Below, in pieces: positions 5,712 to 41,584 of a DNA stretch of 56,302 nucleotides (its first letter is position 1; every line of letters starts with the position of its first letter). The stretch is from UHGV virus genome UHGV-0090450; one strand, given 5' to 3'. A program made the translations under genes and the position numbers. The notes under the pieces are model-generated. The model made no database searches. It saw nothing but the letters and a program-made list of their open reading frames with translations, and was not told where the DNA came from. The stretch comes from a virus.

Positions 5712-6037
5712 TGACGACGTTAACTCAATGCCAGCAGCAGGTGCTGGATATGCTGATTTCTTATCAGAAAGAGCGTGGCTTTCCGCCAACCAATCAGGAG
5801 GTGGCAACCATGCTGGGATACCGTTCGGTGAATGCAGCGGTGGAGCATCTTCGCGCACTGGAGAAAAAAGGCCTCATCACGATAAAGCGTGGCGTGGCAC
5901 GGGGGATAACGCTTCATACCGCTGTGAAGGACGACGACAGCGAGGCGGTCGGGATTATCCGCGCACTGCTTGCCGGTGAGGAAAACGCCAGGCTGCGTGC
6001 AGCCCACTGGTTACATGAGAGGGGCCTGAAAGTATGA
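5711..6037 (+). CDS. LexA DNA-binding-domain-only protein (no S24 peptidase domain)
   Basis: LTQCQQQVLDMLISYQKERGFPPTNQEVATMLGYRSVNAAVEHLRALEKKGLITIKRGVARGITL aligns closely with the LexA N-terminal domain as recalled; ATG at 5711 overlaps upstream stop (TAATG); track ORF begins at 5678. Confidence 0.7.
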   Translation: MTTLTQCQQQVLDMLISYQKERGFPPTNQEVATMLGYRSVNAAVEHLRALEKKGLITIKRGVARGITLHTAVKDDDSEAVGIIRALLAGEENARLRAAHWLHERGLKV

Positions 6038-8687: not shown

Positions 8688-9728
8688 GTGAACATTCAAG
8701 CAGTAGACATTTTTTGTGGCGCAGGGGGCTTAACTTTTGGGCTAAAAAAAGCCGGGATTGAAGTTTCTCATGGCATTGATATTGATGAGTCCTGCCGTTT
8801 CGCTATTGAGAGCAATAATCCCTTAACGAAGTTCATTAACCAGTCAGTTACTGAACTGCAATCCAGCGATGTGTCTGCTATGTTCAAGGAAGGAAATATT
8901 AGATTACTTGCAGGCTGTGCCCCTTGCCAACCGTTTTCCAAGTATCGTAATCCAAATAGCAGAAAAGATGATACAAAGTGGCGTCTTTTATCTGAGTTTC
9001 AGAGGATTGTAAGTGATGTCATGCCAGAGCTTGTGACTATGGAAAATGTTCCTCAACTTAGAAATCATAAGGTTTTTGAAGAGTTTGTTAGTGTATTAAA
9101 GACTCTTGGGTATCATCTGTGGTACGACGTTGTAAAATGTTCCGAGTATGGCTTGCCTCAAAATAGACGTAGATTAATTCTAATTGGGTCCATATTGGGG
9201 CCAATCAGCCTTGATCAAAAAAAAGTAAGCCGTAAAGTTACAGTAAAGGATGCTATTGGTCAGTTGCCAAAAATAGGTGCAGGGGAGAAACTCGAAAGTG
9301 ATCCATTGCATCGTTCGCCTAAATTAAGGGATATTAACCTTAAACGAATCTTGCACTCTTTACCAGGTGGTACGTGGGATGATTGGCCTGAAGAAATTAG
9401 AGCGGATTGCCATAAAAAGCATTCAGGTGCTACCTATAAAAGTGTTTATGGACGGATGGTTTGGGACGATACTAGTCCTACAATAACTACCCAATGTTAT
9501 GGATATGGTAATGGGCGATTCGGACATCCTGAGCAAAATAGAGCAATAACTTTGCGTGAAGCTGCTATTTTACAATCTTTTCCTATGGATTATAAATTTA
9601 TTGGAAAAAATACGCCTTTTTCATTCCAAAAGTTAGGAACGATGATTGGTAATGCTGTTCCCCCTATAATTGGCCAAGTAATAGGGAGAACATTTGTTAG
9701 GCATGTTGAGGGGATAAATATCCGTTAG
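8688..9728 (+). CDS. DNA (cytosine-5) methyltransferase
   Basis: Motif I FCGAGG, motif IV GCAPCQPFS, ENV, QNRRR, C-terminal GNAV; GTG start; AT-rich relative to phage backbone. Confidence 0.9.
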   Translation: MNIQAVDIFCGAGGLTFGLKKAGIEVSHGIDIDESCRFAIESNNPLTKFINQSVTELQSSDVSAMFKEGNIRLLAGCAPCQPFSKYRNPNSRKDDTKWRLLSEFQRIVSDVMPELVTMENVPQLRNHKVFEEFVSVLKTLGYHLWYDVVKCSEYGLPQNRRRLILIGSILGPISLDQKKVSRKVTVKDAIGQLPKIGAGEKLESDPLHRSPKLRDINLKRILHSLPGGTWDDWPEEIRADCHKKHSGATYKSVYGRMVWDDTSPTITTQCYGYGNGRFGHPEQNRAITLREAAILQSFPMDYKFIGKNTPFSFQKLGTMIGNAVPPIIGQVIGRTFVRHVEGINIR

Positions 9729-10386
9729 AGATAATATAATCTTCAGTTGAGTTTATTAATAAACGAAGATATAGATCAACTCTCTCTGCTCTAGACTTAA
9801 CTTCTTCTAAGGGGTCAATTTGCCCCTTTTTAGAGAAGCTAGTACTTCCATGCGCGAGTTCGTTTCTGATATCCTTAAGCAAGTCTAAGTCAATACCATT
9901 TCTACATTCAGGTGAGTTTGCGATAGTTATTCCGTAAGCCTGCGTTATTTTGTGTAATACAGGCTTGCAAACATTACCATTGAATTCTTTACGAATATTC
10001 AATGAGGCTGAAATTATTCTTTTGGAAATGTCAGTGCCTATCTTTTTATAAAGGGATTGCCCTGTTTCATTATCTGAAACAATTCTATGTAATATATTTA
10101 CTTGAAGCTTCTCCCTGAGTGATGCGTAATTCACATCATTATCTTGTAAATGATCATAAATTGACTCGATGCAACCTCTGGCAGTATTTTCAACTTGATT
10201 ATATAGCATCATATGAACGGATGATTTTAAAATATTTACCCTTAGGATATTAGATTCTATTTCATCTTGATGCGCTTGCGGATCTAACTGCTGAGTATGA
10301 ATCTCTATAGATGATGCAAGAGAAAGCAGTTCCATAATGTCTCTTGCTCTTTCTTCATATTCATCTCGTAAATCAATTAGACTCAT
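9697..10386 (-). CDS. HEPN-motif protein (R-x4-H: RNELAHG), putative nuclease partner of DUF262 protein
   Basis: Rx4-6H motif near C-terminus; start 2 nt after DUF262 stop; 3' end overlaps the methyltransferase 3' end by 32 bp. Confidence 0.55.
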   Translation of the reverse strand: MSLIDLRDEYEERARDIMELLSLASSIEIHTQQLDPQAHQDEIESNILRVNILKSSVHMMLYNQVENTARGCIESIYDHLQDNDVNYASLREKLQVNILHRIVSDNETGQSLYKKIGTDISKRIISASLNIRKEFNGNVCKPVLHKITQAYGITIANSPECRNGIDLDLLKDIRNELAHGSTSFSKKGQIDPLEEVKSRAERVDLYLRLLINSTEDYIISNGYLSPQHA

Positions 10387-10388
10387 TT

Positions 10389-11549
10389 TTAAATCCCTAA
10401 CAACTTATTTTTAACGTAAAATATTCTGTTTTTTAGCTGGCTGGTATTGTTTGCACTATCAGCAGTAACAAGTGTTTCAAATTCCTCTTCAAATAGCCAT
10501 TCACCTACAGGTACGGCTGGACTCTGGAGTTGTGGGTTAGTTTTTAATGCAAGTGCAGTTCCCACGGCAATGGCTTCGTATCTGGCTCGTGGGGTGGTTT
10601 TACTTGTTGCGGTCTTTTTAAAGCCAATAGGGAAATGGGCAGCAACAAAAGCAAGCATCATTTCAAAATCATGTTTAAAATTATCAACATCTTGTTGAGT
10701 AGTCACAGCTGCTGCTTGTTCATTTAAATAATTATCAATAAAGGGACGGACAAATCCCTTATAGTTTTCTAAATCATTTAAATATGCAAAAAATCTCAAA
10801 ACTAACTCACGATGATCGCCATTCGACCGTTTCCGGTCTGATAATGGAGCTAGTTGGGAAAAAAGTGAGTTTGTTGAGCATGGGGTCACAACATCTTTAT
10901 AGAACATTGAGGTAGCAGCATCTGAGCCATGCCTCACTTCCATCGCTTCTAATCTTTTAACACCTGAGTTGATCCTTTCAAATAAATCTCTTCTATGTTG
11001 TTCCTCAACATCACCTTTCAACTCAATAAATCTTAGTGAAGCTCTTAAAAATCTTCTTTGGCGGCTAGCTAAAAGATCTGAAAATTTGAAACCTTCTAAA
11101 CTTTTAAGCTCTTTCAAATCCTTTAACTCAAATTGATCGTTCCAAAAATAATAAATAGAGCGTATCCGTTGTGAACCATCAATGATTTCTACCCTACCAT
11201 CTAATTCAGGGTCTTCATTAAATACATCAGCAATGTAAAGGTAAGGTATTGGAAAGTCTAATAGAATACTTTCTATAAAGCGAGAGGCTGTTTTTGTATC
11301 CCACTTGTAATCACGTTGATAATCTGGAATAAAAAGCTCGTTTTTGTCATTTTCAATATTATCACCATACTTTTGAATAATGACTTCAACGGTCCACTCA
11401 CGTACATTGTATCCAATGTTTCTCTGAGCGAGTCTGATTTCATTGTCAGCGGAAGCGGTTAAAGCTGCAATTTCAGCCTTTTTTCTGTTCTTAGCGTGTT
11501 CATCTTGTATCTGAGCAAGCTCTTCTTTGAGTTCTTTGAGTGTAGTCAT
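10389..11549 (-). CDS. DUF262 (ParB-like/GmrS-like) domain protein
   Basis: IPDYQRDYKW and DGSQR motifs diagnostic of DUF262; no DUF1524/HNH domain in the same polypeptide. Confidence 0.8.
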   Translation of the reverse strand: MTTLKELKEELAQIQDEHAKNRKKAEIAALTASADNEIRLAQRNIGYNVREWTVEVIIQKYGDNIENDKNELFIPDYQRDYKWDTKTASRFIESILLDFPIPYLYIADVFNEDPELDGRVEIIDGSQRIRSIYYFWNDQFELKDLKELKSLEGFKFSDLLASRQRRFLRASLRFIELKGDVEEQHRRDLFERINSGVKRLEAMEVRHGSDAATSMFYKDVVTPCSTNSLFSQLAPLSDRKRSNGDHRELVLRFFAYLNDLENYKGFVRPFIDNYLNEQAAAVTTQQDVDNFKHDFEMMLAFVAAHFPIGFKKTATSKTTPRARYEAIAVGTALALKTNPQLQSPAVPVGEWLFEEEFETLVTADSANNTSQLKNRIFYVKNKLLGI

Positions 11550-11823: not shown

Positions 11824-12150
11824 ATGCCTCATAACCCAAATACCTGGCTGGAGTTGGTCCAGAGCTGGTGGCGTGGAGACACACCACTGGGCGCAGTGAT
11901 TATGTCGATTGTTATGGCTGGATTGCGCATTGCCTATTTTGGCGGTGGTGGTGGGTGGAAGCGAAAAACGCTCGAGATTTTGCTCTGTGGTGCTCTGACG
12001 CTGACTTTTGCATCCGCTCTTGAGTATGTCGGATGGCCTAAATCTCTTTCTGTTGCCATTGGTGGCGGTGTTGGGCTGATTGGTGTCGATGCAATTCGTG
12101 GGGCTGCAATGAGAGTGATCGGTAACAAGTTTGGTGGCTCTAAGGAGTAA
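11824..12150 (+). CDS. S: holin (lambda S-like class I)
   Basis: Hydrophobic segments, charged C-terminus, directly upstream of endolysin. Confidence 0.8.
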   Translation: MPHNPNTWLELVQSWWRGDTPLGAVIMSIVMAGLRIAYFGGGGGWKRKTLEILLCGALTLTFASALEYVGWPKSLSVAIGGGVGLIGVDAIRGAAMRVIGNKFGGSKE

Positions 12151-23838: not shown

Positions 23839-23987
23839 CGGCTGAATACCTCACTGATCGCTTCTTTGACTGCGCCAGCTACTGGCGCATTAATCCCTTC
23901 GAATTGCTGAATATGCCGATCAGTGAAATTCCCTTGCTGGTCAGTCAGGCAAACAGGATAGAGCAGGAGAAACGCACACATGGCTGA
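23569..23987 (+). other. putative -1 programmed frameshift fusion product of the tail chaperone
   Basis: Slippery heptamer T-TTT-TTC at about 23821-23827; -1 frame (track ORF 23805-23987) stays open to the tape-measure start. Confidence 0.5.
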
Positions 23988-25812
23988 ATTTGAGCTTAAG
24001 GCGTTGATCACCGGTGTCGACAGGCTTTCTCCCGCGCTGTCGAAAATGCAAAAGAAAATCCGGGGATTTAAACGCCAGGCGGAAGAAGCGTCACAGGGTG
24101 GGCTGGCGCTTGGTGGCGGACTGGCAGCGGGTCTGACGCTTTCCCTGAAATCTTATGCCGATCAGGAAAACGCCGCCACCGGGCTGAAAGTCGCCATGAT
24201 GGATGCGAACGGCGAGGTTGGAAAGAGCTTTCAGGACATCAATAAACTGGCTATTGGCCTGGGTAACCAGCTACCCGGTACAACGGCTGATTTCCAGAAC
24301 ATGATGCAGATGCTGGTGCGTCAGGGGATCCCGGCAGAAAACATTCTTGGTGGTGTGGGTAAAGCGACAGCTTATCTTGCGGTACAACTGAAAAAAACAC
24401 CGGAAGCGGCTGCTGAGTTTGCTGCAAAGATGCAGGATGCTACCGGAACGGCCTCAGAAGACATGATGGGGCTGTTCGACACAATTCAGAAGGCGTTTTA
24501 TCTGGGCGTTGACGACACCAACATGTTGTCATTCTTCACTAAAACCAGCTCTGTTCTGAAGATGGTGAACAAGGACGGTCTTCAGGCTGCACAGAGTCTT
24601 GCCCCCATCAGCGTCATGATGGATCAGATGGGGATGAACGGGGAGTCGGCAGGTAATGCCCTGCGAAAAGTTATCCAGTCCGGATTAAGCGTTAAGAAAA
24701 TCAGGGACGTCAATAAAATCATGGCCCGCCAGAAACTCGGGGTACAGCTCGATTTTACTGATGGCAAAGGGAGTTTTGGCGGTCTTGATAACATGTTTAA
24801 GCAACTGGCAAAGCTGCGAAAACTTACCGACGTTAAGCGAACAGGTGTACTTAAGGCAATATTTGGTGATGATGCCGAAACCCTTCAGGTGGTCAATGCG
24901 CTGATCGATAAAGGAAAGGATGGCTACGATCAGATCCAGCAGAAGATGAATAAACAGGCCAGCCTGAATAAACGTGTTCAGGCTCAGCTTGGTACGCTGT
25001 CCAACCTGTGGGAGGCAATGACGGGGACCGCAACTAACGGCCTTGCGGCTATTGGCGGCGCATTTTCTGGTGACGCTAAGAACATCACGCAGTGGCTGGG
25101 GGAGTTGGGGGAGAAATTCACGAAGTTTGCGGATGAAAATCCCCGGGTTATTCGCGGCGTCGTCGGGCTTGCTGCCGGTCTTGCGATTCTGAAACTGGGA
25201 TTGATGGGCGTTGGCGGTGCCATCAGTATTGTCAGCAGGATCATGTCGATGACGCCGATTGGCATGATTGCGACGGCGATAGCCCTGGCTGCGGGATTAA
25301 TTATCACTAACTGGGATGTTGTCGGACCTTATTTTAAGAAACTCTGGGAAACCATTGGTCCTTATTTTGAGGCTGGCTGGGAACTCCTTAAGAAAGTTTT
25401 TGCCTGGTCGCCGCTGGGGATGGTGATCAATAACTGGGGGCCGGTTGTTAAGTGGTTTCAGGATATGTGGGACAAGCTGAAGCCAATTATTGAGTGGTTT
25501 ACCGACAGTTCCGGTGACACGGTCGATGCCATTAACTCTGCGCAGTGGGGCGCGGGTGCTTATGATGCTTATGGGACGGGAATACCGGCGCGGGGATACA
25601 CACCTTATCCGGCGGTGGATCTGGCTCAGTCAAACAACGCCTCCGATGCCACAGCCCCGAATCCCTTCATGATTAACAAAGCTTCTGCGCCAAAAGTTGA
25701 TGGTGAGATCAAGGTCTCTTTTGTGAATTCGCCTCCGGGTATGCGGGTTATGGAAACACGTTCTAGTGACATTGATATTAATCACGATGTTGGGTACACC
25801 AGATTTAGGTAA
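23980..25812 (+). CDS. tail tape measure protein
   Basis: 610 aa, Ala/Gly-rich, hydrophobic central region. Confidence 0.9.
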   Translation: MAEFELKALITGVDRLSPALSKMQKKIRGFKRQAEEASQGGLALGGGLAAGLTLSLKSYADQENAATGLKVAMMDANGEVGKSFQDINKLAIGLGNQLPGTTADFQNMMQMLVRQGIPAENILGGVGKATAYLAVQLKKTPEAAAEFAAKMQDATGTASEDMMGLFDTIQKAFYLGVDDTNMLSFFTKTSSVLKMVNKDGLQAAQSLAPISVMMDQMGMNGESAGNALRKVIQSGLSVKKIRDVNKIMARQKLGVQLDFTDGKGSFGGLDNMFKQLAKLRKLTDVKRTGVLKAIFGDDAETLQVVNALIDKGKDGYDQIQQKMNKQASLNKRVQAQLGTLSNLWEAMTGTATNGLAAIGGAFSGDAKNITQWLGELGEKFTKFADENPRVIRGVVGLAAGLAILKLGLMGVGGAISIVSRIMSMTPIGMIATAIALAAGLIITNWDVVGPYFKKLWETIGPYFEAGWELLKKVFAWSPLGMVINNWGPVVKWFQDMWDKLKPIIEWFTDSSGDTVDAINSAQWGAGAYDAYGTGIPARGYTPYPAVDLAQSNNASDATAPNPFMINKASAPKVDGEIKVSFVNSPPGMRVMETRSSDIDINHDVGYTRFR

Positions 25813-25819
25813 AGACGAA

Positions 25820-25840
25820 CAGGGAGGGCCGCCCCTCCCT
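25820..25840. terminator. bidirectional hairpin CAGGGAGGG-CCG-CCCCTCCCTG between convergent genes
   Basis: Perfect 9-bp GC stem between TMP stop and the minus-strand moron stop. Confidence 0.5.
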
Positions 25841-25844
25841 GAAC

Positions 25845-26291
25845 TTACTGTGCGAACACGCAATTTCGGCCTGATGGGGAGCCGACAATTCTGGACATTT
25901 TTTCGCAAATAACAGTTACCTGTTCTCCTTTTTTAAGAGCAGCAGCTGTTGATTTTTCAGAGTCTTGCATCTCCATTCTTGCTGGCATGAATTCATTTTC
26001 AGTTCTGAATTTAATAATTATAGAGTCAGTAAAGTCCTTATCAATGGATTGTACGATACCTCTAACGGCGATTAATTTACCTTTTAACTGTTCATCGGTA
26101 GCGACTTCATTTTCTTCATACTCTTTAAACAGCTGTCGAGCAGTAGTGTTGTAGATTTCTTTTTGCGGTGCCGCAGCTTCCGTATCGGATGAGTATGAAG
26201 AATTAGAGCCTTTATCGTTATTGCCTGCAAAATATCCAATAATCACCAACCCGATGAAAATATATAAAATCCATTTTAATAATTTCTTCAT
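25845..26291 (-). CDS. membrane-anchored OB-fold protein (tRNA_anti-like family character), antisense moron
   Basis: N-terminal TM anchor, segment LFKEYEENEVATDEQLKGKLIAVRGIVQSIDKD; AT-rich. Confidence 0.6.
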   Translation of the reverse strand: MKKLLKWILYIFIGLVIIGYFAGNNDKGSNSSYSSDTEAAAPQKEIYNTTARQLFKEYEENEVATDEQLKGKLIAVRGIVQSIDKDFTDSIIIKFRTENEFMPARMEMQDSEKSTAAALKKGEQVTVICEKMSRIVGSPSGRNCVFAQ

Positions 26292-26401
26292 GTTATCACC
26301 TTAATGCTAATAATTTATATAGTTACAAATGGTAATGGCTACCACTACAAATTATGGCATTACCAGTAAATATTACTACTGATAATAAATATGGGACTTA
26401 T

Positions 26402-27730
26402 ATGACGTGGAAAGACAGACTTCAGGATGCGTCATTTCGCGGCGTGCCGTTTAAGGTTGAAGAAGAAAGTGCGGGAACCGGTCGTCGTGTGGAAACACAT
26501 GAATACCCGAACCGCGACAAACCCTATACCGAAGACCTGGGGAAAATCACTTTCCGCCCGTCCATCACGGCTTATGTGGTGGGAGATGACTGCTTTGACC
26601 AGCGTGATCTCCTGATTGAAGCGCTGAATAAACCAGGTCCCGGCACGCTTGTCCACCCGACATACGGTGAGGTGAAAGTCTGTGTTGACGGGGAAGTCCG
26701 GGTCAGCACATCGAAGAGTGAAGGGCGTATTGTCCGCTTTGACCTGAAGTTTGTCGAAGCGGGAGAACTCTCTTACCCCACATCAGGCGTGGCGACGGCG
26801 CAGACGCTGATGTCATCCTGTTCTGCACTGGATGACTGCATCAGTGACAGCTTCAGCGGTTTCAGTATCGATGGCGTGGCGGATTTTGTGCAGAACGACG
26901 TTATCGGTAATGCCAGCACAATGCTTGGGTATGTTTCTGATGCGATGAAAGTGGTGGATTCTGCTGTATCGGATGCCGCCAGGCTGTTGCAGGGGGATAT
27001 CTCGGTACTTCTGCCGCCGCCATCGTCAGGAAAAAATTTCGTTGAGCAGGTGCAGAAAATGTGGCGTACCGGTAAACGCCTTTATGGTAACGCCAGCGAC
27101 CTGGTCACCATGATCAAAATGCTTTCTGGTGTCAGCCTCGGCAGCGATTTGCAACCGCGCGGCGTCTGGAAAACGGACAGTAAAACCACCGCCACAGCGA
27201 CGCAGCAGCGTAACGTGGTTGCCAGCACTCTTCGTACGACTGCAATCAGCGAAGCAGCGTATGCCGTCACACGATTGCCTGCGCCAACAACTCCCGCGGT
27301 GATGCAGAATGCCGCAGTGGGGCAGTCAACAACACCCGCGCAGAGCACCGGCTGGCCTTCCGTCACGCATCCGGCACTGAACAATGCACCTGCGGTGAAA
27401 AACACGGTTGACCTGCCAACGTGGGAAGAACTGACCGACATTCGCGACACACTGAATACGGCAATTGATAAGGAGTTGTCCCGTACAACCAGTGATGCGC
27501 TGTTTCTGGCGCTGCGCCGGGTGAAAGCAGATCTGAATGCGGATATCAACACGCGCCTTGAACAGTCTGCGCGGATCATTCAGCGCACGCCGGATGAGGT
27601 TTTACCCGCGCTGGTGCTGGCGGCGACCTGGTTTGATAACGCGGCGCGTGACGTGGACCTTATCCGGCGTAATGCTATTACGCATCCCGGCTTTGTGCCG
27701 GTGATCCCTCTGAAGGTGCCAGTGCAATGA
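26402..27730 (+). CDS. DNA circulation protein (Mu N-like)
   Basis: MTWKDRLQDASFRGVPF N-terminus; ATG at 26402 preferred over track start 26354. Confidence 0.8.
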   Translation: MTWKDRLQDASFRGVPFKVEEESAGTGRRVETHEYPNRDKPYTEDLGKITFRPSITAYVVGDDCFDQRDLLIEALNKPGPGTLVHPTYGEVKVCVDGEVRVSTSKSEGRIVRFDLKFVEAGELSYPTSGVATAQTLMSSCSALDDCISDSFSGFSIDGVADFVQNDVIGNASTMLGYVSDAMKVVDSAVSDAARLLQGDISVLLPPPSSGKNFVEQVQKMWRTGKRLYGNASDLVTMIKMLSGVSLGSDLQPRGVWKTDSKTTATATQQRNVVASTLRTTAISEAAYAVTRLPAPTTPAVMQNAAVGQSTTPAQSTGWPSVTHPALNNAPAVKNTVDLPTWEELTDIRDTLNTAIDKELSRTTSDALFLALRRVKADLNADINTRLEQSARIIQRTPDEVLPALVLAATWFDNAARDVDLIRRNAITHPGFVPVIPLKVPVQ

Positions 27731-33005: not shown

Positions 33006-34073
33006 TTAATGAAATTTATCTCGGATGAATTGTTGCGATGGCTTTTCAATGAATATATATGACATATAGCTAATTGCCATTAATGTAAGCATGAATAAAA
33101 TGAATACCTTGGGGCTGTAAAAAAGATCGCGTCCATAGCCAATCTTGTCAGCTAAATAAACAACAATGATTTGCAAAGGAAAATGTAAAAGATAAGATGA
33201 ATAACTGATATCACCCAACCATTCAATTTTCTTCCCAAAATCGTTTCGTATTGCGCTAATTGATACAAGGAAAAAGATTATGGAGGTAAATCCGAATAAG
33301 ATAATTGAGAATATATCTGCTACTTGCAGGGTAAAGATAACTCCCCATGAGATCAATAGAAAAACACAAGCAAAAATAAAAAATAATTTTGCGCTAATAT
33401 TTTTTATGACCGCAATCGTAATTTTATAGGTCAGACCACCAATAAAGAAAGAGAATGCGCCGATCATTATGGGATTGTTAATTTTGAAAAAGTAGTACGA
33501 CAATGCAACTATTAAAATTGATATGAATGTTGTTTTTGATGTGAACTTGCATAATATAAAAAATATCATGTACATAAGTACTTCAATCGACACGGACCAT
33601 GTCGGGGCGTTGAAGGACCAACCTCGCTCAAATCCCCATGATTGAATCATCAATAAATTCAGAATGGCATGGTAAATGTCATTCATAGGATAAACAAAAA
33701 AATAATTATGACTTTTAAAGAAAATAATTTGTAATATTGCCACGACAGCAAATGTAAATATATAAAGTGGATATAATCTACTGACACGGTTAACTATAAA
33801 AGTTTTTGCTGAGGTTTTATTGCTGTGTATATTGTCAGCGTATAGATAAAAAAATATGAATCCAGAAATCATAAAAAACAATTCGACAGCATATAAACCG
33901 TAATGATAAAAAACGGAAAAAAATTCATAAAAAGGTTGGCGGTTTATGATTATGTCAGATGCAGCATTCTTTTTCATAAAAAAATGTTGCCAATGCCATA
34001 ACACAACGGAAAGTGCGGCAAATCCTCTCAGAACATCCAGGGTATATATTCTCTTCCCAAAAAAATTCGTCAC
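33006..34073 (-). CDS. acyltransferase family 3 integral membrane protein (O-antigen acetyltransferase-like)
   Basis: About 10 predicted TM helices; N-terminus LDVLRGFAALSVVLWHWQHFF; very AT-rich. Confidence 0.85.
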   Translation of the reverse strand: MTNFFGKRIYTLDVLRGFAALSVVLWHWQHFFMKKNAASDIIINRQPFYEFFSVFYHYGLYAVELFFMISGFIFFYLYADNIHSNKTSAKTFIVNRVSRLYPLYIFTFAVVAILQIIFFKSHNYFFVYPMNDIYHAILNLLMIQSWGFERGWSFNAPTWSVSIEVLMYMIFFILCKFTSKTTFISILIVALSYYFFKINNPIMIGAFSFFIGGLTYKITIAVIKNISAKLFFIFACVFLLISWGVIFTLQVADIFSIILFGFTSIIFFLVSISAIRNDFGKKIEWLGDISYSSYLLHFPLQIIVVYLADKIGYGRDLFYSPKVFILFMLTLMAISYMSYIFIEKPSQQFIRDKFH

Positions 34074-34623: not shown

Positions 34624-35493
<870 letters not shown>

Positions 35494-36032: not shown

Positions 36033-38597
36033 TTATTTCATAAGAGTGCGCCTTGTTTTGATCTGATCACGCCATTCTTTTAACGTGCTTATATCCGCTC
36101 GCAGCTCCTTATACTCTGGTATAGAAGCTGGCATTTCCGTCGACTGGCTGTGCTCATAACAGCTGTATTTAGTCATGAGGCTTTCAATCAATTTACAGTC
36201 TTCTGCAGTTATATCCTGTACATACGGAAGCCTTCCGTCAGTCTGGATTCCTCTTCTATGACGTATAACTACCCCGTTAAATAAATCCTCCTCGACAGAG
36301 CGCTCAATGAGTTTACGAAAATCACTGCAAACGCCCTGAGCTAGCCCACGGAAAGCTATTGCGCCATGTTCTTGTCCAGATTTGTAGGCTGAATCCAGCC
36401 TAGTCAGGAGAATGTTATTCGCTGATTTGGTATTCGCGTTCCAGACCTCCTGATCGGCAGGATGACCGGCAGCTCCATCAAATGATTCAATACATATCGA
36501 TTTATGGTGCTGCTTTTTCCATGGGTCTCCCTCTTTTCTTGCCAAATCTTCAATTACCCCGTAAAGGGAAAGTCTGTGCGTTAAAATAATCACCTGACGC
36601 GATTTAGCGAGTTCAACGAGGCGTTTAGCAACTTGCCACTCAAATTCGTGGTCCAGAGATGAAATAGGGTCATCAAAAATGAAGGGAGCAGATCCCGGCC
36701 GATCAGTGACATCGGCTAAAAATGCAGCCAGTGAGATAATCCTACGTTCTCCTTCACTCAGAACATTGTGCAACTTGTCCCGTTGCGCTCCTTTTAGCTG
36801 TAGCTGATGCAAAACTTTCGCATTTTCTGTCCTTATTTTCACAAGCTCAACCTGCAAGCCAGGAGCACCAAGAACTTTCAGCTCACGGTTGAATCTGGCG
36901 GCATAGGCTTCAGTGACAACTTTCTGAGTAATATCAGCAGATTTAGTTGATAATGCACGGGAAGCGGCAAGTGATATCCATTCATCAAATTCACTTCTTT
37001 TTTTTAAGCGTTCAACTTCGGCTCTGATAGCCTCGGCTTGACCAGATAACCACCGTCGAGCTTCGGCTTCGTTTTTATTCTGCAAAGCTTTGGCCCTGTC
37101 AAATCCTGCTGCATCTCTCTGAAACTGGTCGGCTTCTCCCTGAAGCCGGTCGCGGTAAGTACGTAAATTCGTGATAGCTTCGGTCAAATCAGCCAAAGGA
37201 ACTGCTGTCTGGGTAGCTTCATGCTCGGTGAGCGCCTGACGACTGAGGGATGCGGAACTCCATATTCCCGTTAGGTATTTATTCCATTCTTCCTGAATCG
37301 CAGCGCTTGCACAAAGGGTAGCAATTTCGGCCATTGAGGGAGGAATAGTTATCGAGCCGATTGCCTGAGCATACAGACACTCAGCTGTGGCAGCATCGCT
37401 CTCAAGACGTGATTGCACGAAAGCCTCAAGATTGTTCAGACGCTGCTGAGCTTCTGCGGATAGAGCCTGATTGCATAAAACACAACAGGCCTCATCTGTT
37501 GCCGGAAAAGCCTTGTCTGGATAGGGCGTCCTTGAATAGTCGCGAGCAGCTTCCCACATGGCACGCCATACAGGTGAGCCAATGCCCTCCAGTGAGTCAT
37601 CTTTTATTCGTTCACTATCAAGCGCAATTCTGCGCTTGCTGATGCTATCAGCACGTAACGCCCGAAGACAGTCGATATTTGACTGGCTAAAAGTCTTTGC
37701 CGTCTGCTCAAGTTGAGTGATGATCTGATTAACAGATGTTTGAACCGCAAGCTTGTTGCGGGCGTTCTCAGCCGGATCTTTAACGTTCAGACGTTCATTC
37801 AAGGCACTAAGCGCTTGCTCATCCGCCTCAGACCAGTTTGTCATCACTGCGATATTTTCGGTAGTTGCTGTACTTAGTGCACTATAGGTAGTGGCAATAT
37901 GACAACGCTGATAAACAGCAGGTAGTTCGGGAAGTTTGCTGACTAGCTGAGACTGTTCATCCCTTAGCTTATCGCGTACCAGTTTCAGGTACTGGGCCAG
38001 TTTTTCAAAAAGCCCCACCACACTCGGTATATAGGTAGCGGCACTCTCTTGGGTGAGATAATGCAGAGATTCATCCGTATCGAAGATATCAATGCCTTTC
38101 AGGGCATCGATCGGAGGGCTGTCAGCTGACCAGTCCGCTTCAGCATTGCTTTCATTCGCTTTCCATTTAATGTGGCAACTTCGCTCAGGTGGTAAGGGAT
38201 TAAAGACATTAGAGTTAAGCTGAGCTGCTCTAGGTTTTCCGGACATACGTTTGAGCACACGCGTATAGCTGGATTTACCGGACCCGTTATGGCCGTAAAT
38301 AACAGTCAGATTCCCTGAACCGAAATCGAGCGGTAAACGTGGAGCAAGGTTCTCAATACCCTTTACAGCTTCGATCCGACTTAACCTGAGTGTTCCAGAT
38401 CCCTGCTCTGCAGATGCTAGGCCTAGGAAAGTATGGTGTGTCGTTTTTGTTCGTCCATGGGGGGTCTTGAGTAAAGCAATAACCTGCTGAAGGTCATTAT
38501 CTGTCAGGTCATCCTGTTGAATGAGTCTTTCCGCTAGTTCCTGAAACCAGTCCTGCTGCTTTAACAGCCAGGCTATGATATCGGCCTTTACATCCAT
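36033..38597 (-). CDS. RloC-like ABC/SMC-type ATPase with coiled-coil insertion and CxxC zinc hook (AAA_13-like)
   Basis: Walker A VIYGHNGSGKSS, signature LSEGERRIISLAAFLA, Walker B FIFDDPISSLD, H-loop ILTHR, CVLC within the roughly 500-aa insertion; RBS AGGAGGG. Confidence 0.7.
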   Translation of the reverse strand: MDVKADIIAWLLKQQDWFQELAERLIQQDDLTDNDLQQVIALLKTPHGRTKTTHHTFLGLASAEQGSGTLRLSRIEAVKGIENLAPRLPLDFGSGNLTVIYGHNGSGKSSYTRVLKRMSGKPRAAQLNSNVFNPLPPERSCHIKWKANESNAEADWSADSPPIDALKGIDIFDTDESLHYLTQESAATYIPSVVGLFEKLAQYLKLVRDKLRDEQSQLVSKLPELPAVYQRCHIATTYSALSTATTENIAVMTNWSEADEQALSALNERLNVKDPAENARNKLAVQTSVNQIITQLEQTAKTFSQSNIDCLRALRADSISKRRIALDSERIKDDSLEGIGSPVWRAMWEAARDYSRTPYPDKAFPATDEACCVLCNQALSAEAQQRLNNLEAFVQSRLESDAATAECLYAQAIGSITIPPSMAEIATLCASAAIQEEWNKYLTGIWSSASLSRQALTEHEATQTAVPLADLTEAITNLRTYRDRLQGEADQFQRDAAGFDRAKALQNKNEAEARRWLSGQAEAIRAEVERLKKRSEFDEWISLAASRALSTKSADITQKVVTEAYAARFNRELKVLGAPGLQVELVKIRTENAKVLHQLQLKGAQRDKLHNVLSEGERRIISLAAFLADVTDRPGSAPFIFDDPISSLDHEFEWQVAKRLVELAKSRQVIILTHRLSLYGVIEDLARKEGDPWKKQHHKSICIESFDGAAGHPADQEVWNANTKSANNILLTRLDSAYKSGQEHGAIAFRGLAQGVCSDFRKLIERSVEEDLFNGVVIRHRRGIQTDGRLPYVQDITAEDCKLIESLMTKYSCYEHSQSTEMPASIPEYKELRADISTLKEWRDQIKTRRTLMK

Positions 38598-40369: not shown

Positions 40370-41584
40370 GTGAAACTCAATGCCCGTCAAATAGACACTG
40401 CCAAGCCAAAAGAGAAGGCTTACAAGCTGGCTGATGGTGGTGGTCTGTATCTCTTGGTAAAACCTAGTGGAGGAAAATATTGGCGCTTCAAGTATCGTGT
40501 AGCTGGTAAAGAGAAGCTGTTAGCACTAGGTGTGTATCCTGAAGTTACCTTGGCTGATGCTCGTGCAAAACGTGAAGAAGCTAAAAGGGGTATCGCTGGG
40601 GGTATCGATCCGATGGAAGCGAAACGAGAGGAAAAGATTGCCCGGGAAACGCAGTTAAACAACACCTTCAAAGATATTGCCCTTGAGTGGCACAGCAGCA
40701 AATTAAAAAAATGGTCTGCTGGTTATGCTTCAGACATCCTCGAAGCCTTCAACAAAGATGTGTTCCCTTACATTGGCAAAAAACCAATCGCCGAAATCAA
40801 ACCACTTGAACTGCTGAATGTGCTGCGGCGCATCGAGGGGCGCGGTGCTACCGAAAAAGCCAAAAAAGTGAGGCAGCGATGTGGGGAAGTTTTCCGCTAT
40901 GCAATTGTCACTGGACGTGCTGAGTATAACCCTGCACCGGATCTCACCAGCGCGATGCAAGGTCATGAATCTAATCATTATCCTTTCCTCACAGCCAAAG
41001 AATTACCTGATTTTTTCAAGGCATTGTCCAGTTACTCAGGAAGTGCATTGGTTGTTATGGCGGCTCGTTTACTGATTATCACCGGTTTGCGGACTGGCGA
41101 ACTGCGCGGTGCATTATGGGATGAAATCGATCTCAACAAGGCTATCTGGGAGATACCTGCTTCACGGATGAAAATGCGTCGCCCTCATGTAGTGCCTTTG
41201 TCTGAGCAGGCTCTTTCGCTTATTGGGCAGATTAAAGAACTAACTGGCAATTATCCGCTTATGTTTCCCGGCCGTAATGATCCAAGGAAAACAATGAGCG
41301 AGGCTAGCATAAACCAAGTATTTAAACGCATCGGCTATAACGGAAAGGTTACTGGTCATGGCTTCCGGCACACTATGAGCACCATTTTGCATGAGCAGGG
41401 CTATAACACCGCGTGGATAGAGACACAGCTTGCGCACGTCGATAAAAACTCAATTCGTGGCACATACAACCATGCGCAATATCTGGATGGGCGGCGGGAA
41501 ATGCTTCAGTGGTACGCTGATTATATGGATTCGCTCGAGCATGGCGGAAATGTGGTGCATGGTGAGTTCGGAAAATGCGGGTGA
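40370..41584 (+). CDS. int: tyrosine integrase (P4 type, N-terminal arm-binding domain)
   Basis: N-terminus KLADGGGLYLLVKPSGGKYWRFKYR, C-terminal catalytic region (HGFRHT, LAH...RGTYNH); GTG start after GGAGG; adjacent to tRNA fragment. Confidence 0.9.
   Translation: MKLNARQIDTAKPKEKAYKLADGGGLYLLVKPSGGKYWRFKYRVAGKEKLLALGVYPEVTLADARAKREEAKRGIAGGIDPMEAKREEKIARETQLNNTFKDIALEWHSSKLKKWSAGYASDILEAFNKDVFPYIGKKPIAEIKPLELLNVLRRIEGRGATEKAKKVRQRCGEVFRYAIVTGRAEYNPAPDLTSAMQGHESNHYPFLTAKELPDFFKALSSYSGSALVVMAARLLIITGLRTGELRGALWDEIDLNKAIWEIPASRMKMRRPHVVPLSEQALSLIGQIKELTGNYPLMFPGRNDPRKTMSEASINQVFKRIGYNGKVTGHGFRHTMSTILHEQGYNTAWIETQLAHVDKNSIRGTYNHAQYLDGRREMLQWYADYMDSLEHGGNVVHGEFGKCG

Follow-up and report, generated by a model that had tools for sequence, protein, structure and literature searches.

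What is a small gene doing on the opposite strand of a phage tail operon? The question is raised by the UHGV virus genome UHGV-0090450 (56,302 nucleotides, the whole stretch analysed, here called the window). In it, a 148-residue open reading frame (ORF) is encoded on the minus strand at 25845..26291, stop codon included, between the tail tape-measure gene (23980..25812, plus strand) and the DNA-circulation gene (Mu gp43-like; 26402..27730, plus strand). An earlier note, made from the letters of the sequence, had described an AT-rich antisense gene of this length at this place, and had proposed that its product is expressed in the lysogen, possibly for superinfection exclusion. The gene is present as claimed. 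It is a true single-gene moron in an accessory-gene hotspot, and its product is a remote homologue of Sie2009, the exclusion protein of the Lactococcus phage Tuc2009. We suggest that it may be a prophage-expressed superinfection-exclusion protein that blocks phage DNA entry at the inner membrane, a proposal to which we give an even chance.

A predicted membrane-anchored OB-fold protein

The ORF has an ATG start (its sequence begins MKKLLKWILYIFIGLVIIGYFAG) with a Shine-Dalgarno sequence, AAGGTG, read off the sequence 5 nt upstream (26297..26302, minus strand). In RefSeq, the Prokaryotic Genome Annotation Pipeline (PGAP) names its product 'OB-fold protein' (WP_000734912.1). It is a real gene and not a chance ORF, because the product matches the Pfam family PF12869, the ratio of nonsynonymous to synonymous substitution rates (dN/dS) between alleles from the same slot is at most 0.07, and the AlphaFold2 model is confident. 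The GC content of the gene is 37.4%, and 34% at third codon positions (GC3), compared with 51% in the tape-measure gene and 56% in the DNA-circulation gene, i.e., the base composition differs from that of both flanking genes, as it does in morons.

The match to PF12869 (tRNA_anti-like) scores 69.5 bits against a cut-off of 23.5, with residues 2-130 aligned to model positions 5-131 of 146. Three parts can be distinguished in the AlphaFold2 model, which was built with a 37-sequence alignment. The N-terminus, with the basic stretch MKKLLK, leads into a hydrophobic helix at residues 3-22 (26226..26285, minus strand) that is conserved in the alignment and whose best 19-residue stretch has a mean hydropathy of 2.16. 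A flexible linker rich in Ser, Asn and Thr follows (codons 23-45; 26157..26225, minus strand), disordered at residues 26-39, where the predicted local distance difference test score (pLDDT) is below 50. The OB-fold domain occupies codons 46-148 (25848..26156, minus strand) and is modelled as a barrel over its whole length with a pLDDT of 95-98; it contains the motifs Y-x-x-NEVA-x-D and VQSIDKDF as well as the cysteines Cys129 and Cys144.

When the model is searched with Foldseek, the chains of 3F1Z are found first, followed by the anticodon-binding OB domains of the Asp-, Lys- and Asn-tRNA synthetases. According to the model and the fold search, the domain forms the five-stranded OB barrel of PF12869. 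The N-terminal membrane anchor and the OB fold, both proposed in the earlier note, are thus backed by Pfam, by the AlphaFold2 model and by Foldseek with 3F1Z as the top match. Searches of the PDB sequences with phmmer and with the family profile gave nothing significant, and 3F1Z was found by the fold search only.

The N-terminal helix would be a signal anchor, or possibly an uncleaved signal peptide; it may also be a signal peptide that is cleaved off. We infer that the N-terminus is inside, the C-terminus outside and the OB domain periplasmic, because of the cysteine pair, the relatives with a zinc ribbon or a lipobox, the basic N-terminus, the lipoprotein nature of 3F1Z and the topology of TcdC from Clostridioides difficile. 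The pair Cys129/Cys144 is invariant in the family alignment, is present in 119 of 124 aligned sequences and probably forms a disulfide bond. Two CxxC motifs, i.e., a zinc ribbon, are located N-terminal to the membrane helix in 35 of 122 relatives, and the zinc ribbon is confirmed by Pfam in one phage homologue. A few other relatives have a lipobox in place of the helix. For TcdC, the PF12869-like OB domain was shown by experiment to be extracellular (10.1101/872283). Positive-inside counting was also tried as support for the topology and discriminates only weakly (mean 2.0 vs 1.7 Lys/Arg; in 15 of 37 sequences the higher count is on the N-terminal flank); the assignment therefore rests on the cysteine pair, the zinc-ribbon and lipoprotein relatives, and TcdC.

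Relationship to Sie2009 and other known proteins

The best match among the PHROG families is phrog_8545, 'superinfection exclusion Sie-like' (E 1.5e-49, residues 1-146). The label of this family stems from orf2 of Tuc2009, i.e., Sie2009, which itself matches phrog_8545 with an E-value of 1.7e-79 and PF12869 with 3.5e-11. Alignment of the enterobacterial family with Sie2009 by hhalign gives a probability of 98% (E 1.7e-13) over 134 columns, covering the anchor, the linker and the OB domain. The two proteins share the same PHROG and the same Pfam family, and both are encoded by accessory genes of temperate phages. They are also built in the same way, with a short basic N-terminus, a single hydrophobic helix, a Ser/Thr-rich linker and a C-terminal OB domain, in 148 and 173 residues, respectively. 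Sie2009, which has an identical copy named SieLC3, is a membrane-associated and experimentally characterised blocker of the DNA injection of heterologous phages (PMC7693887; 10.1101/2023.08.15.553423). The gene positions differ, as Sie2009 is encoded in the lysogeny module, between the repressor and the integrase, while the moron is antisense in the tail cluster. Further, the phenotype of Sie2009 has been demonstrated (PMC7693887), whereas that of the moron protein is a prediction.

Given its annotation as 'OB-fold protein' and its place in a Sie-like PHROG, the gene does not represent a new kind of system. However, the link between PF12869 and exclusion is implicit and exists only in PHROGs and in GenBank annotation: a literature search found no paper that joins PF12869 or tRNA_anti-like with superinfection exclusion, and PF12869 appeared only in the TcdC paper.

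Two other proteins share the combination of export or anchoring with a PF12869 domain. The structural representative of the family, PDB entry 3F1Z, is a 'putative nucleic acid-binding lipoprotein' from Klebsiella pneumoniae, aligned by Foldseek with an E-value of 5e-5 and a target-normalised TM-score of 0.64. Like the moron product, it is an exported or anchored enterobacterial OB-fold protein, but it has a lipoprotein anchor rather than a membrane helix, and the sequence identity is 17-19%. In one structural match from BFVD, the OB domain is combined with a protein named 'Host cell surface-exposed lipoprotein'. TcdC has a PF12869-like OB fold (HHpred E 1.3e-6; PMC3575817). It resembles the moron product in its membrane anchor and its C-terminal, extracellular OB domain, and differs by an extra coiled-coil dimerisation segment. 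The Lactobacillus phages A2 and Lrm1 have TcdC-like ORFs as well, located in their lysogeny switch region between cI and int. ORF22 of phage A2 was considered as a bridge to the TcdC family and rejected, as hhalign gives 85% over 36 columns only and the protein belongs to a different PHROG.

A parallel of a different kind is gp15 of phage HK97, the founding 'moron', an inner-membrane exclusion protein encoded in the tail operon beside the tape-measure gene, with homologues in bacteria outside prophages (PMC3594210). Both genes are single-gene morons inside a tail operon and next to the tape-measure gene, and gp15 has its own transcription signals and is expressed from the prophage. In contrast to the moron product, gp15 belongs to a YebO-like family without an OB fold, its gene lies on the opposite side of the tape-measure gene, and the tail of HK97 is non-contractile. 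When the moron protein was searched against Pfam with E-values up to 1, the matches were PF12869 and a single sub-threshold KOW hit, with no similarity to YebO or gp15. We consider the resemblance to gp15 to be one of position and proposed function only. Ltp of Streptococcus phage TP-J34 and SieA of Salmonella phage P22 are likewise membrane proteins expressed from a prophage, and they keep the DNA of an adsorbed phage from entering. Escape from Ltp maps to the tape-measure protein and escape from SieA to ejection proteins. Ltp is a lipoprotein with helix-turn-helix-like repeats and SieA an integral protein of the membrane that has three helices, and both are unrelated to the moron product in fold and sequence. 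A search of NCBIfam returned nothing meaningful for the moron protein.

A cargo slot between the tape-measure and DNA-circulation genes

The moron is carried by the tail module of an SfV/SfI/SfII-like E. coli prophage. This prophage is SfV-like, with a lambdoid head and a Mu-like contractile tail; its tail module codes for the sheath, the tube, a chaperone, the tape measure, the DNA-circulation protein and baseplate proteins similar to Mu gp44-48. The 1.2 kb around the moron are 100% identical to the E. coli chromosome NZ_CP098192, and at least 1,000 contigs encode exactly this protein, annotated as 'OB-fold protein', 'tRNA_anti-like' or 'hypothetical protein'. Strains Z0117EC0116, DS26-1 and UMNK88 are examples of carriers of the allele.

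In SfII, SfV and SfI the slot is empty, and the tape-measure gene adjoins the DNA-circulation gene. Alignment with SfII (empty) and SKA5 (other cargo) delimits an AT-rich cassette of ~584 bp with 37% GC (25813..26396, moron on the minus strand): the homology ends just past the stop codon of the tape-measure gene and returns at TTATATGACGTGG. SfII carries its own annotated rho-independent terminator at the junction. The cassette substitutes for the short intergenic region of SfII, including this terminator, and brings its own hairpin.

The junction is present in 1,093 of 5,426 complete E. coli genomes, and only 70 of these (about 6%) contain the cassette over at least 80% of the query. Sixty junction matches, sampled evenly down the ranking, were surveyed for the content of the slot (25813-26401 in the window; L001:1895-2407, L020:669-1046 and L022:632-1162 in related loci). 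About 29 are empty, 5 contain the OB-fold gene, about 13 an ORF of phrog_8976 and 1 a bPH_1 gene, while 11 match with one flank only. The phrog_8976 ORF lies on the plus strand and codes for 170-176 residues with a signal-peptide-like N-terminus; no match to it was found in Pfam or PADLOC. The bPH_1 gene codes for a bacterial PH-domain protein of 125 residues. The slot is a cargo hotspot that can be empty or filled, and the moron status named in the earlier note holds, by the features that define morons in HK97 and HK022 (PMC3594210): the slot is empty in SfII, SfV, SfI and most junction-bearing E. coli relatives, and the cassette is AT-rich with its own hairpin.

Decayed alleles of the moron are also found (IMG/VR loci L040-L044; L021:1479-1811). 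In one group, a deletion between short GGTAA repeats has removed the -10 element, the 5' untranslated region (UTR), the ribosome-binding site, the start codon and the membrane helix; in L040 this deletion lies ~40 nt upstream of the start of the tblastn match at locus position 6001. In strain EJN001, an IS1 insertion has cut off the 3' end of another copy.

Between prophages that differ in slot content, the tape-measure gene is mosaic over its final 20-60 codons (25757-25812 in the window; L008, L009, L001, L002 and L020), so the recombination breakpoints of the cassette extend into the 3' end of this gene. Co-variation of the tape-measure C-terminus with the moron allele was considered as well. 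There is no consistent pairing with slot content, and it was dropped as evidence.

Selection and exchange of moron alleles

In another E. coli prophage (L008) and in a Buttiauxella prophage (L009), this slot is filled by alleles that are ~72-76% identical at the nucleotide level and also lie on the antisense strand. Between slot alleles dN/dS is 0.04-0.07 and dN is 0.12-0.17, and the synonymous sites are saturated. The constraint is stronger on the OB domain than on the anchor and the linker; the linker, which varies in length and sequence among homologues, has a dN/dS above that of the OB domain. From these rates, we regard the moron as an old and selected gene under purifying selection.

The divergence of the moron from the Buttiauxella allele is about equal to that of the tail genes, which are 71-77% identical at the nucleotide level. 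The comparison with the E. coli prophage L008 is different: here the tail genes are 92-98% identical and the moron only 72%, and therefore whole cassettes have been swapped between near-identical tail modules.

Candidate transcription signals of the cassette

A perfect GC-rich hairpin with a 9-bp stem and a 4-nt loop, CAGGGAGGG-CCGC-CCCTCCCTG, is located at 25820..25841 (minus strand), starting 3 nt past the stop codon of the moron and 7 nt past that of the tape-measure gene. It is predicted to fold at -19 to -22 kcal/mol (z-scores, -2.7 and -3.2). The earlier note had called it a perfect bidirectional hairpin. It is perfect, as the stem is 100% complementary, but the sequence does not support a bidirectional function. 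In a terminator scan it is called on just the minus strand, with the T-rich tail TTCGTCTTTA after it, whereas the plus-strand sequence after it, AACTTACTGTG, contains no U-run. A bidirectional terminator was rejected as unsupported for this reason, and also because the late tail operon must read through to the baseplate genes. The hairpin is likely an intrinsic terminator, or a stabiliser of the 3' end, of the moron transcript. In two diverged alleles the GGGAGGG/CCCTCCC stem is kept while the loops differ.

On the other side of the gene, a candidate extended -10 element, TGC-CATAAT, is found 59 nt upstream of the moron ATG (26351..26359, minus strand). The pattern TGC[C/T/G]ATAA[T/A] is kept at 59-62 nt from the ATG in four alleles, although the rest of the upstream sequence has diverged, and the Shine-Dalgarno sequence AGGTGAT is kept in three of the four. 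Of the own promoter and terminator expected of a moron, the terminator-like hairpin is present on the gene strand, while the candidate promoter consists of no more than the conserved extended -10 element, its -35 being weak. The putative -10 element and the putative start of transcription are enclosed by a perfect 8-bp inverted repeat, TGGTAATG/CATTACCA (26330-26337 / 26358-26365). This repeat could serve as an operator or fold into a hairpin within the 5' UTR; as an operator it was rejected, since it is not kept in the other alleles. The diverged alleles carry a different small hairpin in their 5' UTR. A search of the cassette and the intergenic regions against Rfam with E-values up to 1 gave only a spurious sub-threshold match to MALAT1.

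The region between the moron start codon and the DNA-circulation gene is a divergent intergenic region of 110 bp. This length assumes that the DNA-circulation gene starts at 26402, which is most likely, while the listed ORF start at 26354 is probably false. The start at 26402 is preferred because PGAP uses it in a genome that is identical over 25500-26700, and because the homology with SfII and SKA5 returns just before this ATG. The ATG at 26354 is the complement of the putative -10 hexamer of the moron.

Relatives in repressor operons and on chromosomes

The positions of related genes in other phages suggest, in our analysis, expression in the lysogen. The P2-like Burkholderia phage Carl1 has its homologue at the end of the immunity-repressor operon, as the final gene; it is followed by a terminator and converges on the tail gene D. 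In 17 of 61 non-redundant IMG/VR loci, the gene directly upstream and in the same orientation codes for a CI-type repressor, and representatives of these repressors are confirmed by Pfam as Phage_CI_repr or as helix-turn-helix plus Peptidase_S24. A further 11 of the 61 have a Carl1-like arrangement that converges on P2 gpD. Antisense positions in tail clusters also recur: in Klebsiella phage ST405-OXA48phi1.2 a version with zinc ribbon, helix and OB domain is antisense among the baseplate genes, and in locus L065 the homologue is antisense beside the tape-measure gene.

Homologues with 55-67% identity are also encoded on chromosomes, as stand-alone genes away from prophages: in Pantoea, in Pectobacterium and behind a transporter operon of the liv type. 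The Pantoea homologue (159 residues, 65% identical; L004-L007, 8001-8480) follows copCD-yebY among small unannotated genes. With genes for a WapI-like (toxin-immunity) and an IraP-like protein among them, the stretch may represent a variable islet and not core genome.

Proposed superinfection exclusion and alternative functions

We suggest the following mechanism. A promoter of its own would drive the gene in antisense to the late tail operon, and transcription would end at the hairpin. Such an antisense promoter would allow expression while the prophage is repressed. The product would insert into the inner membrane by its N-terminal helix with the N-terminus inside, and the flexible linker of ~25 residues would carry the disulfide-stabilised OB domain into the periplasm. 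Other phages would adsorb, and the entry of their genomes would be stopped at the cytoplasmic membrane. The likely binding partner would be a tail-tip, tape-measure or ejection component of the incoming phage, or a membrane site that this component needs. Like Sie2009, HK97 gp15, Ltp and P22 SieA, the protein would then interfere with the trans-envelope DNA conduit of the adsorbed phage. The exclusion role is proposed because of the remote homology to Sie2009, with which the protein shares its PHROG and Pfam family; both the exclusion phenotype and the expression in lysogens are what we infer from the comparative analysis.

Several observations weigh against this proposal. The homology to Sie2009 is remote, with BLASTP aligning only 47 residues at 36% identity, and Sie2009 comes from a Gram-positive host and has no cysteine pair. 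For the Gram-negative members of the family, an exclusion role is a prediction. No family in PADLOC-DB v2 matches the moron protein with E-values up to 1. The two-hexamer promoter scan makes no call at the candidate extended -10 element, where the -35 is weak, and the AT-rich cassette could be silenced by H-NS. The naturally 5'-deleted and IS1-truncated copies show that the gene is dispensable. Finally, there are the stand-alone chromosomal homologues, and the PF12869-like family is very large: it comprises 7,908 clusters at 50% identity (E up to 1e-3), almost all of them uncharacterised. An exclusion role can therefore not be assumed for every member. However, HK97 gp15 also has homologues outside prophages, and therefore the chromosomal copies do not exclude such a role.

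The chromosomal copies and the size of the family, together with the lack of a PADLOC match, are also what would be expected of a lysogenic-conversion factor that acts on the envelope and has nothing to do with phage exclusion, in parallel to Bor and Lom of lambda. OB folds bind oligosaccharides besides nucleic acids. A periplasmic OB domain could then bind to a glycan of the envelope, to peptidoglycan or to a protein of the host, with effects on stress tolerance, on colonisation or on the sensitivity to toxins and colicins. The other cargo of the slot points in the same direction, as it also consists of small uncharacterised proteins, one with an apparent signal peptide. However, Sie2009, the only experimentally characterised relative of closely similar architecture, is an exclusion protein, and relatives recur in repressor operons and in tail-cluster moron slots of unrelated temperate phages, while gp15 shows that chromosomal homologues and an exclusion role can go together. 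We consider an envelope function of this kind rather unlikely. The position in the tail module by the tape-measure gene, with a tape-measure 3' end that is mosaic along with the slot, could instead speak for an accessory of the lytic cycle, or for a regulator, that is not expressed in the lysogen. It might act in tail assembly or lysis timing, or as a membrane-bound regulator of the TcdC type, TcdC having been proposed as a negative regulator (PMC3575817). Such a role is improbable, as the gene is on the strand opposite to the late operon, has a foreign base composition and is missing from most close relatives with near-identical tail genes, and as tail clusters that are otherwise similar contain natural variants with a deletion or an IS truncation. 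The extracellular OB domain of TcdC further speaks against a cytoplasmic regulation. The role of TcdC in toxin regulation is itself disputed.

If the OB domain were cytoplasmic, the protein could act in abortive infection, binding phage nucleic acid and causing membrane damage or a block of replication. AbiP and PdpSau, the latter encoded by a prophage, are N-terminally anchored and have OB-fold-like nucleic-acid-binding regions (PMC10127798). The resemblance of PF12869 to the anticodon-binding OB domains of tRNA synthetases and the binding of G-quadruplex DNA by TcdC in vitro fit such a role as well. Against this stand the predicted extracytoplasmic position of the domain (cysteine pair, relatives with zinc ribbon-helix-OB or lipoprotein architecture, 3F1Z, TcdC topology), the missing match to the Abi models of PADLOC and, as read from the sequence, a C-terminal domain that is not positively charged, unlike that of PdpSau; we find the idea very improbable. 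The last alternative, a silent hitch-hiker that was acquired without benefit in E. coli and is now decaying, for example under silencing by H-NS, would account for the AT-rich foreign DNA, the copies pseudogenised by 5' deletion and IS1, and the presence in ~6% of the junction-bearing genomes. It has at most a slight chance, given the strong purifying selection over saturated synonymous divergence, the conservation of slot, strand, hairpin stem and -10 element across alleles of different genera, and the exact protein on at least 1,000 contigs.

Implications of a possible entry-blocking function

If the protein is an entry blocker, the Sie2009 class would extend from lactic-acid bacteria to Enterobacteriaceae. 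The genetics of E. coli, its phage collections and periplasmic biochemistry would then offer a tractable route to the mechanism of Sie2009-type exclusion, unsolved more than 20 years on. It would also provide a testable function for the exported 'OB-fold/tRNA_anti-like' family of ~7,900 clusters, and it would make the moron a prophage-borne resistance determinant that matters for the phage therapy of E. coli. Should the protein not act in exclusion, the moron is still an ordinary accessory gene, annotated before, at a moron hotspot that is known.

It can further be speculated that the membrane-tethered PF12869 OB proteins are one pan-bacterial class of extracytoplasmic genome-entry blockers, which is possible, though we find it doubtful. 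The class would span the Gram-positive Sie2009, the enterobacterial morons, the orphan chromosomal copies and perhaps TcdC of the phage-derived pathogenicity locus (PaLoc) of C. difficile, and the OB domain, in the periplasm of the enterobacterial members, would capture the tape-measure or the ejection conduit of the incoming phage. If this were true, the moron locus would be the first example from a Gram-negative host and from a phage with a contractile tail. Thousands of 'OB-fold lipoprotein' genes, uncharacterised so far, would thereby become accessible to functional study.

Other cargo of the prophage

Genes that may act against phages or modify the cell surface are found at other hotspots of the prophage; they fit an exclusion function of the moron and do not prove it. 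Before the lysis genes, whose first ORF is at 11824, a C-5 cytosine methyltransferase gene (8688-9728, plus strand) is found beside two paired genes on the antisense strand. These code for a HEPN protein (9697-10386, minus strand) and for a GmrSD_N/DUF262 protein (10389-11549, minus strand) with PADLOC matches to NsnA and PD-T4-2_A. From its gene content, the stretch 8688-11549 looks like a defence cassette; NZ_CP098192 has other cargo at this place. The collinearity with the NZ_CP098192 prophage runs through the tail module, to 33349; outside the tail module the window differs.

Downstream, an acyltransferase of the Acyl_transf_3 family (33006-34073, minus strand) is encoded where NZ_CP098192 has an IS1. 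Judged from the sequence, it could be an O-antigen-modifying, serotype-converting enzyme. Further genes on the minus strand code for a GIY-YIG protein matching PD-T4-3 (34624-35448, E 4e-140) and a PDC-S06 AAA ATPase (36033-38597). A second tyrosine integrase with Arm-DNA-bind_3, Phage_int_M and Phage_integrase domains (40370-41584) opens another element, which is probably a satellite or island adjoining the prophage. In a related genome, the second integrase is followed by P4-like genes including a TOPRIM/DUF927 primase.

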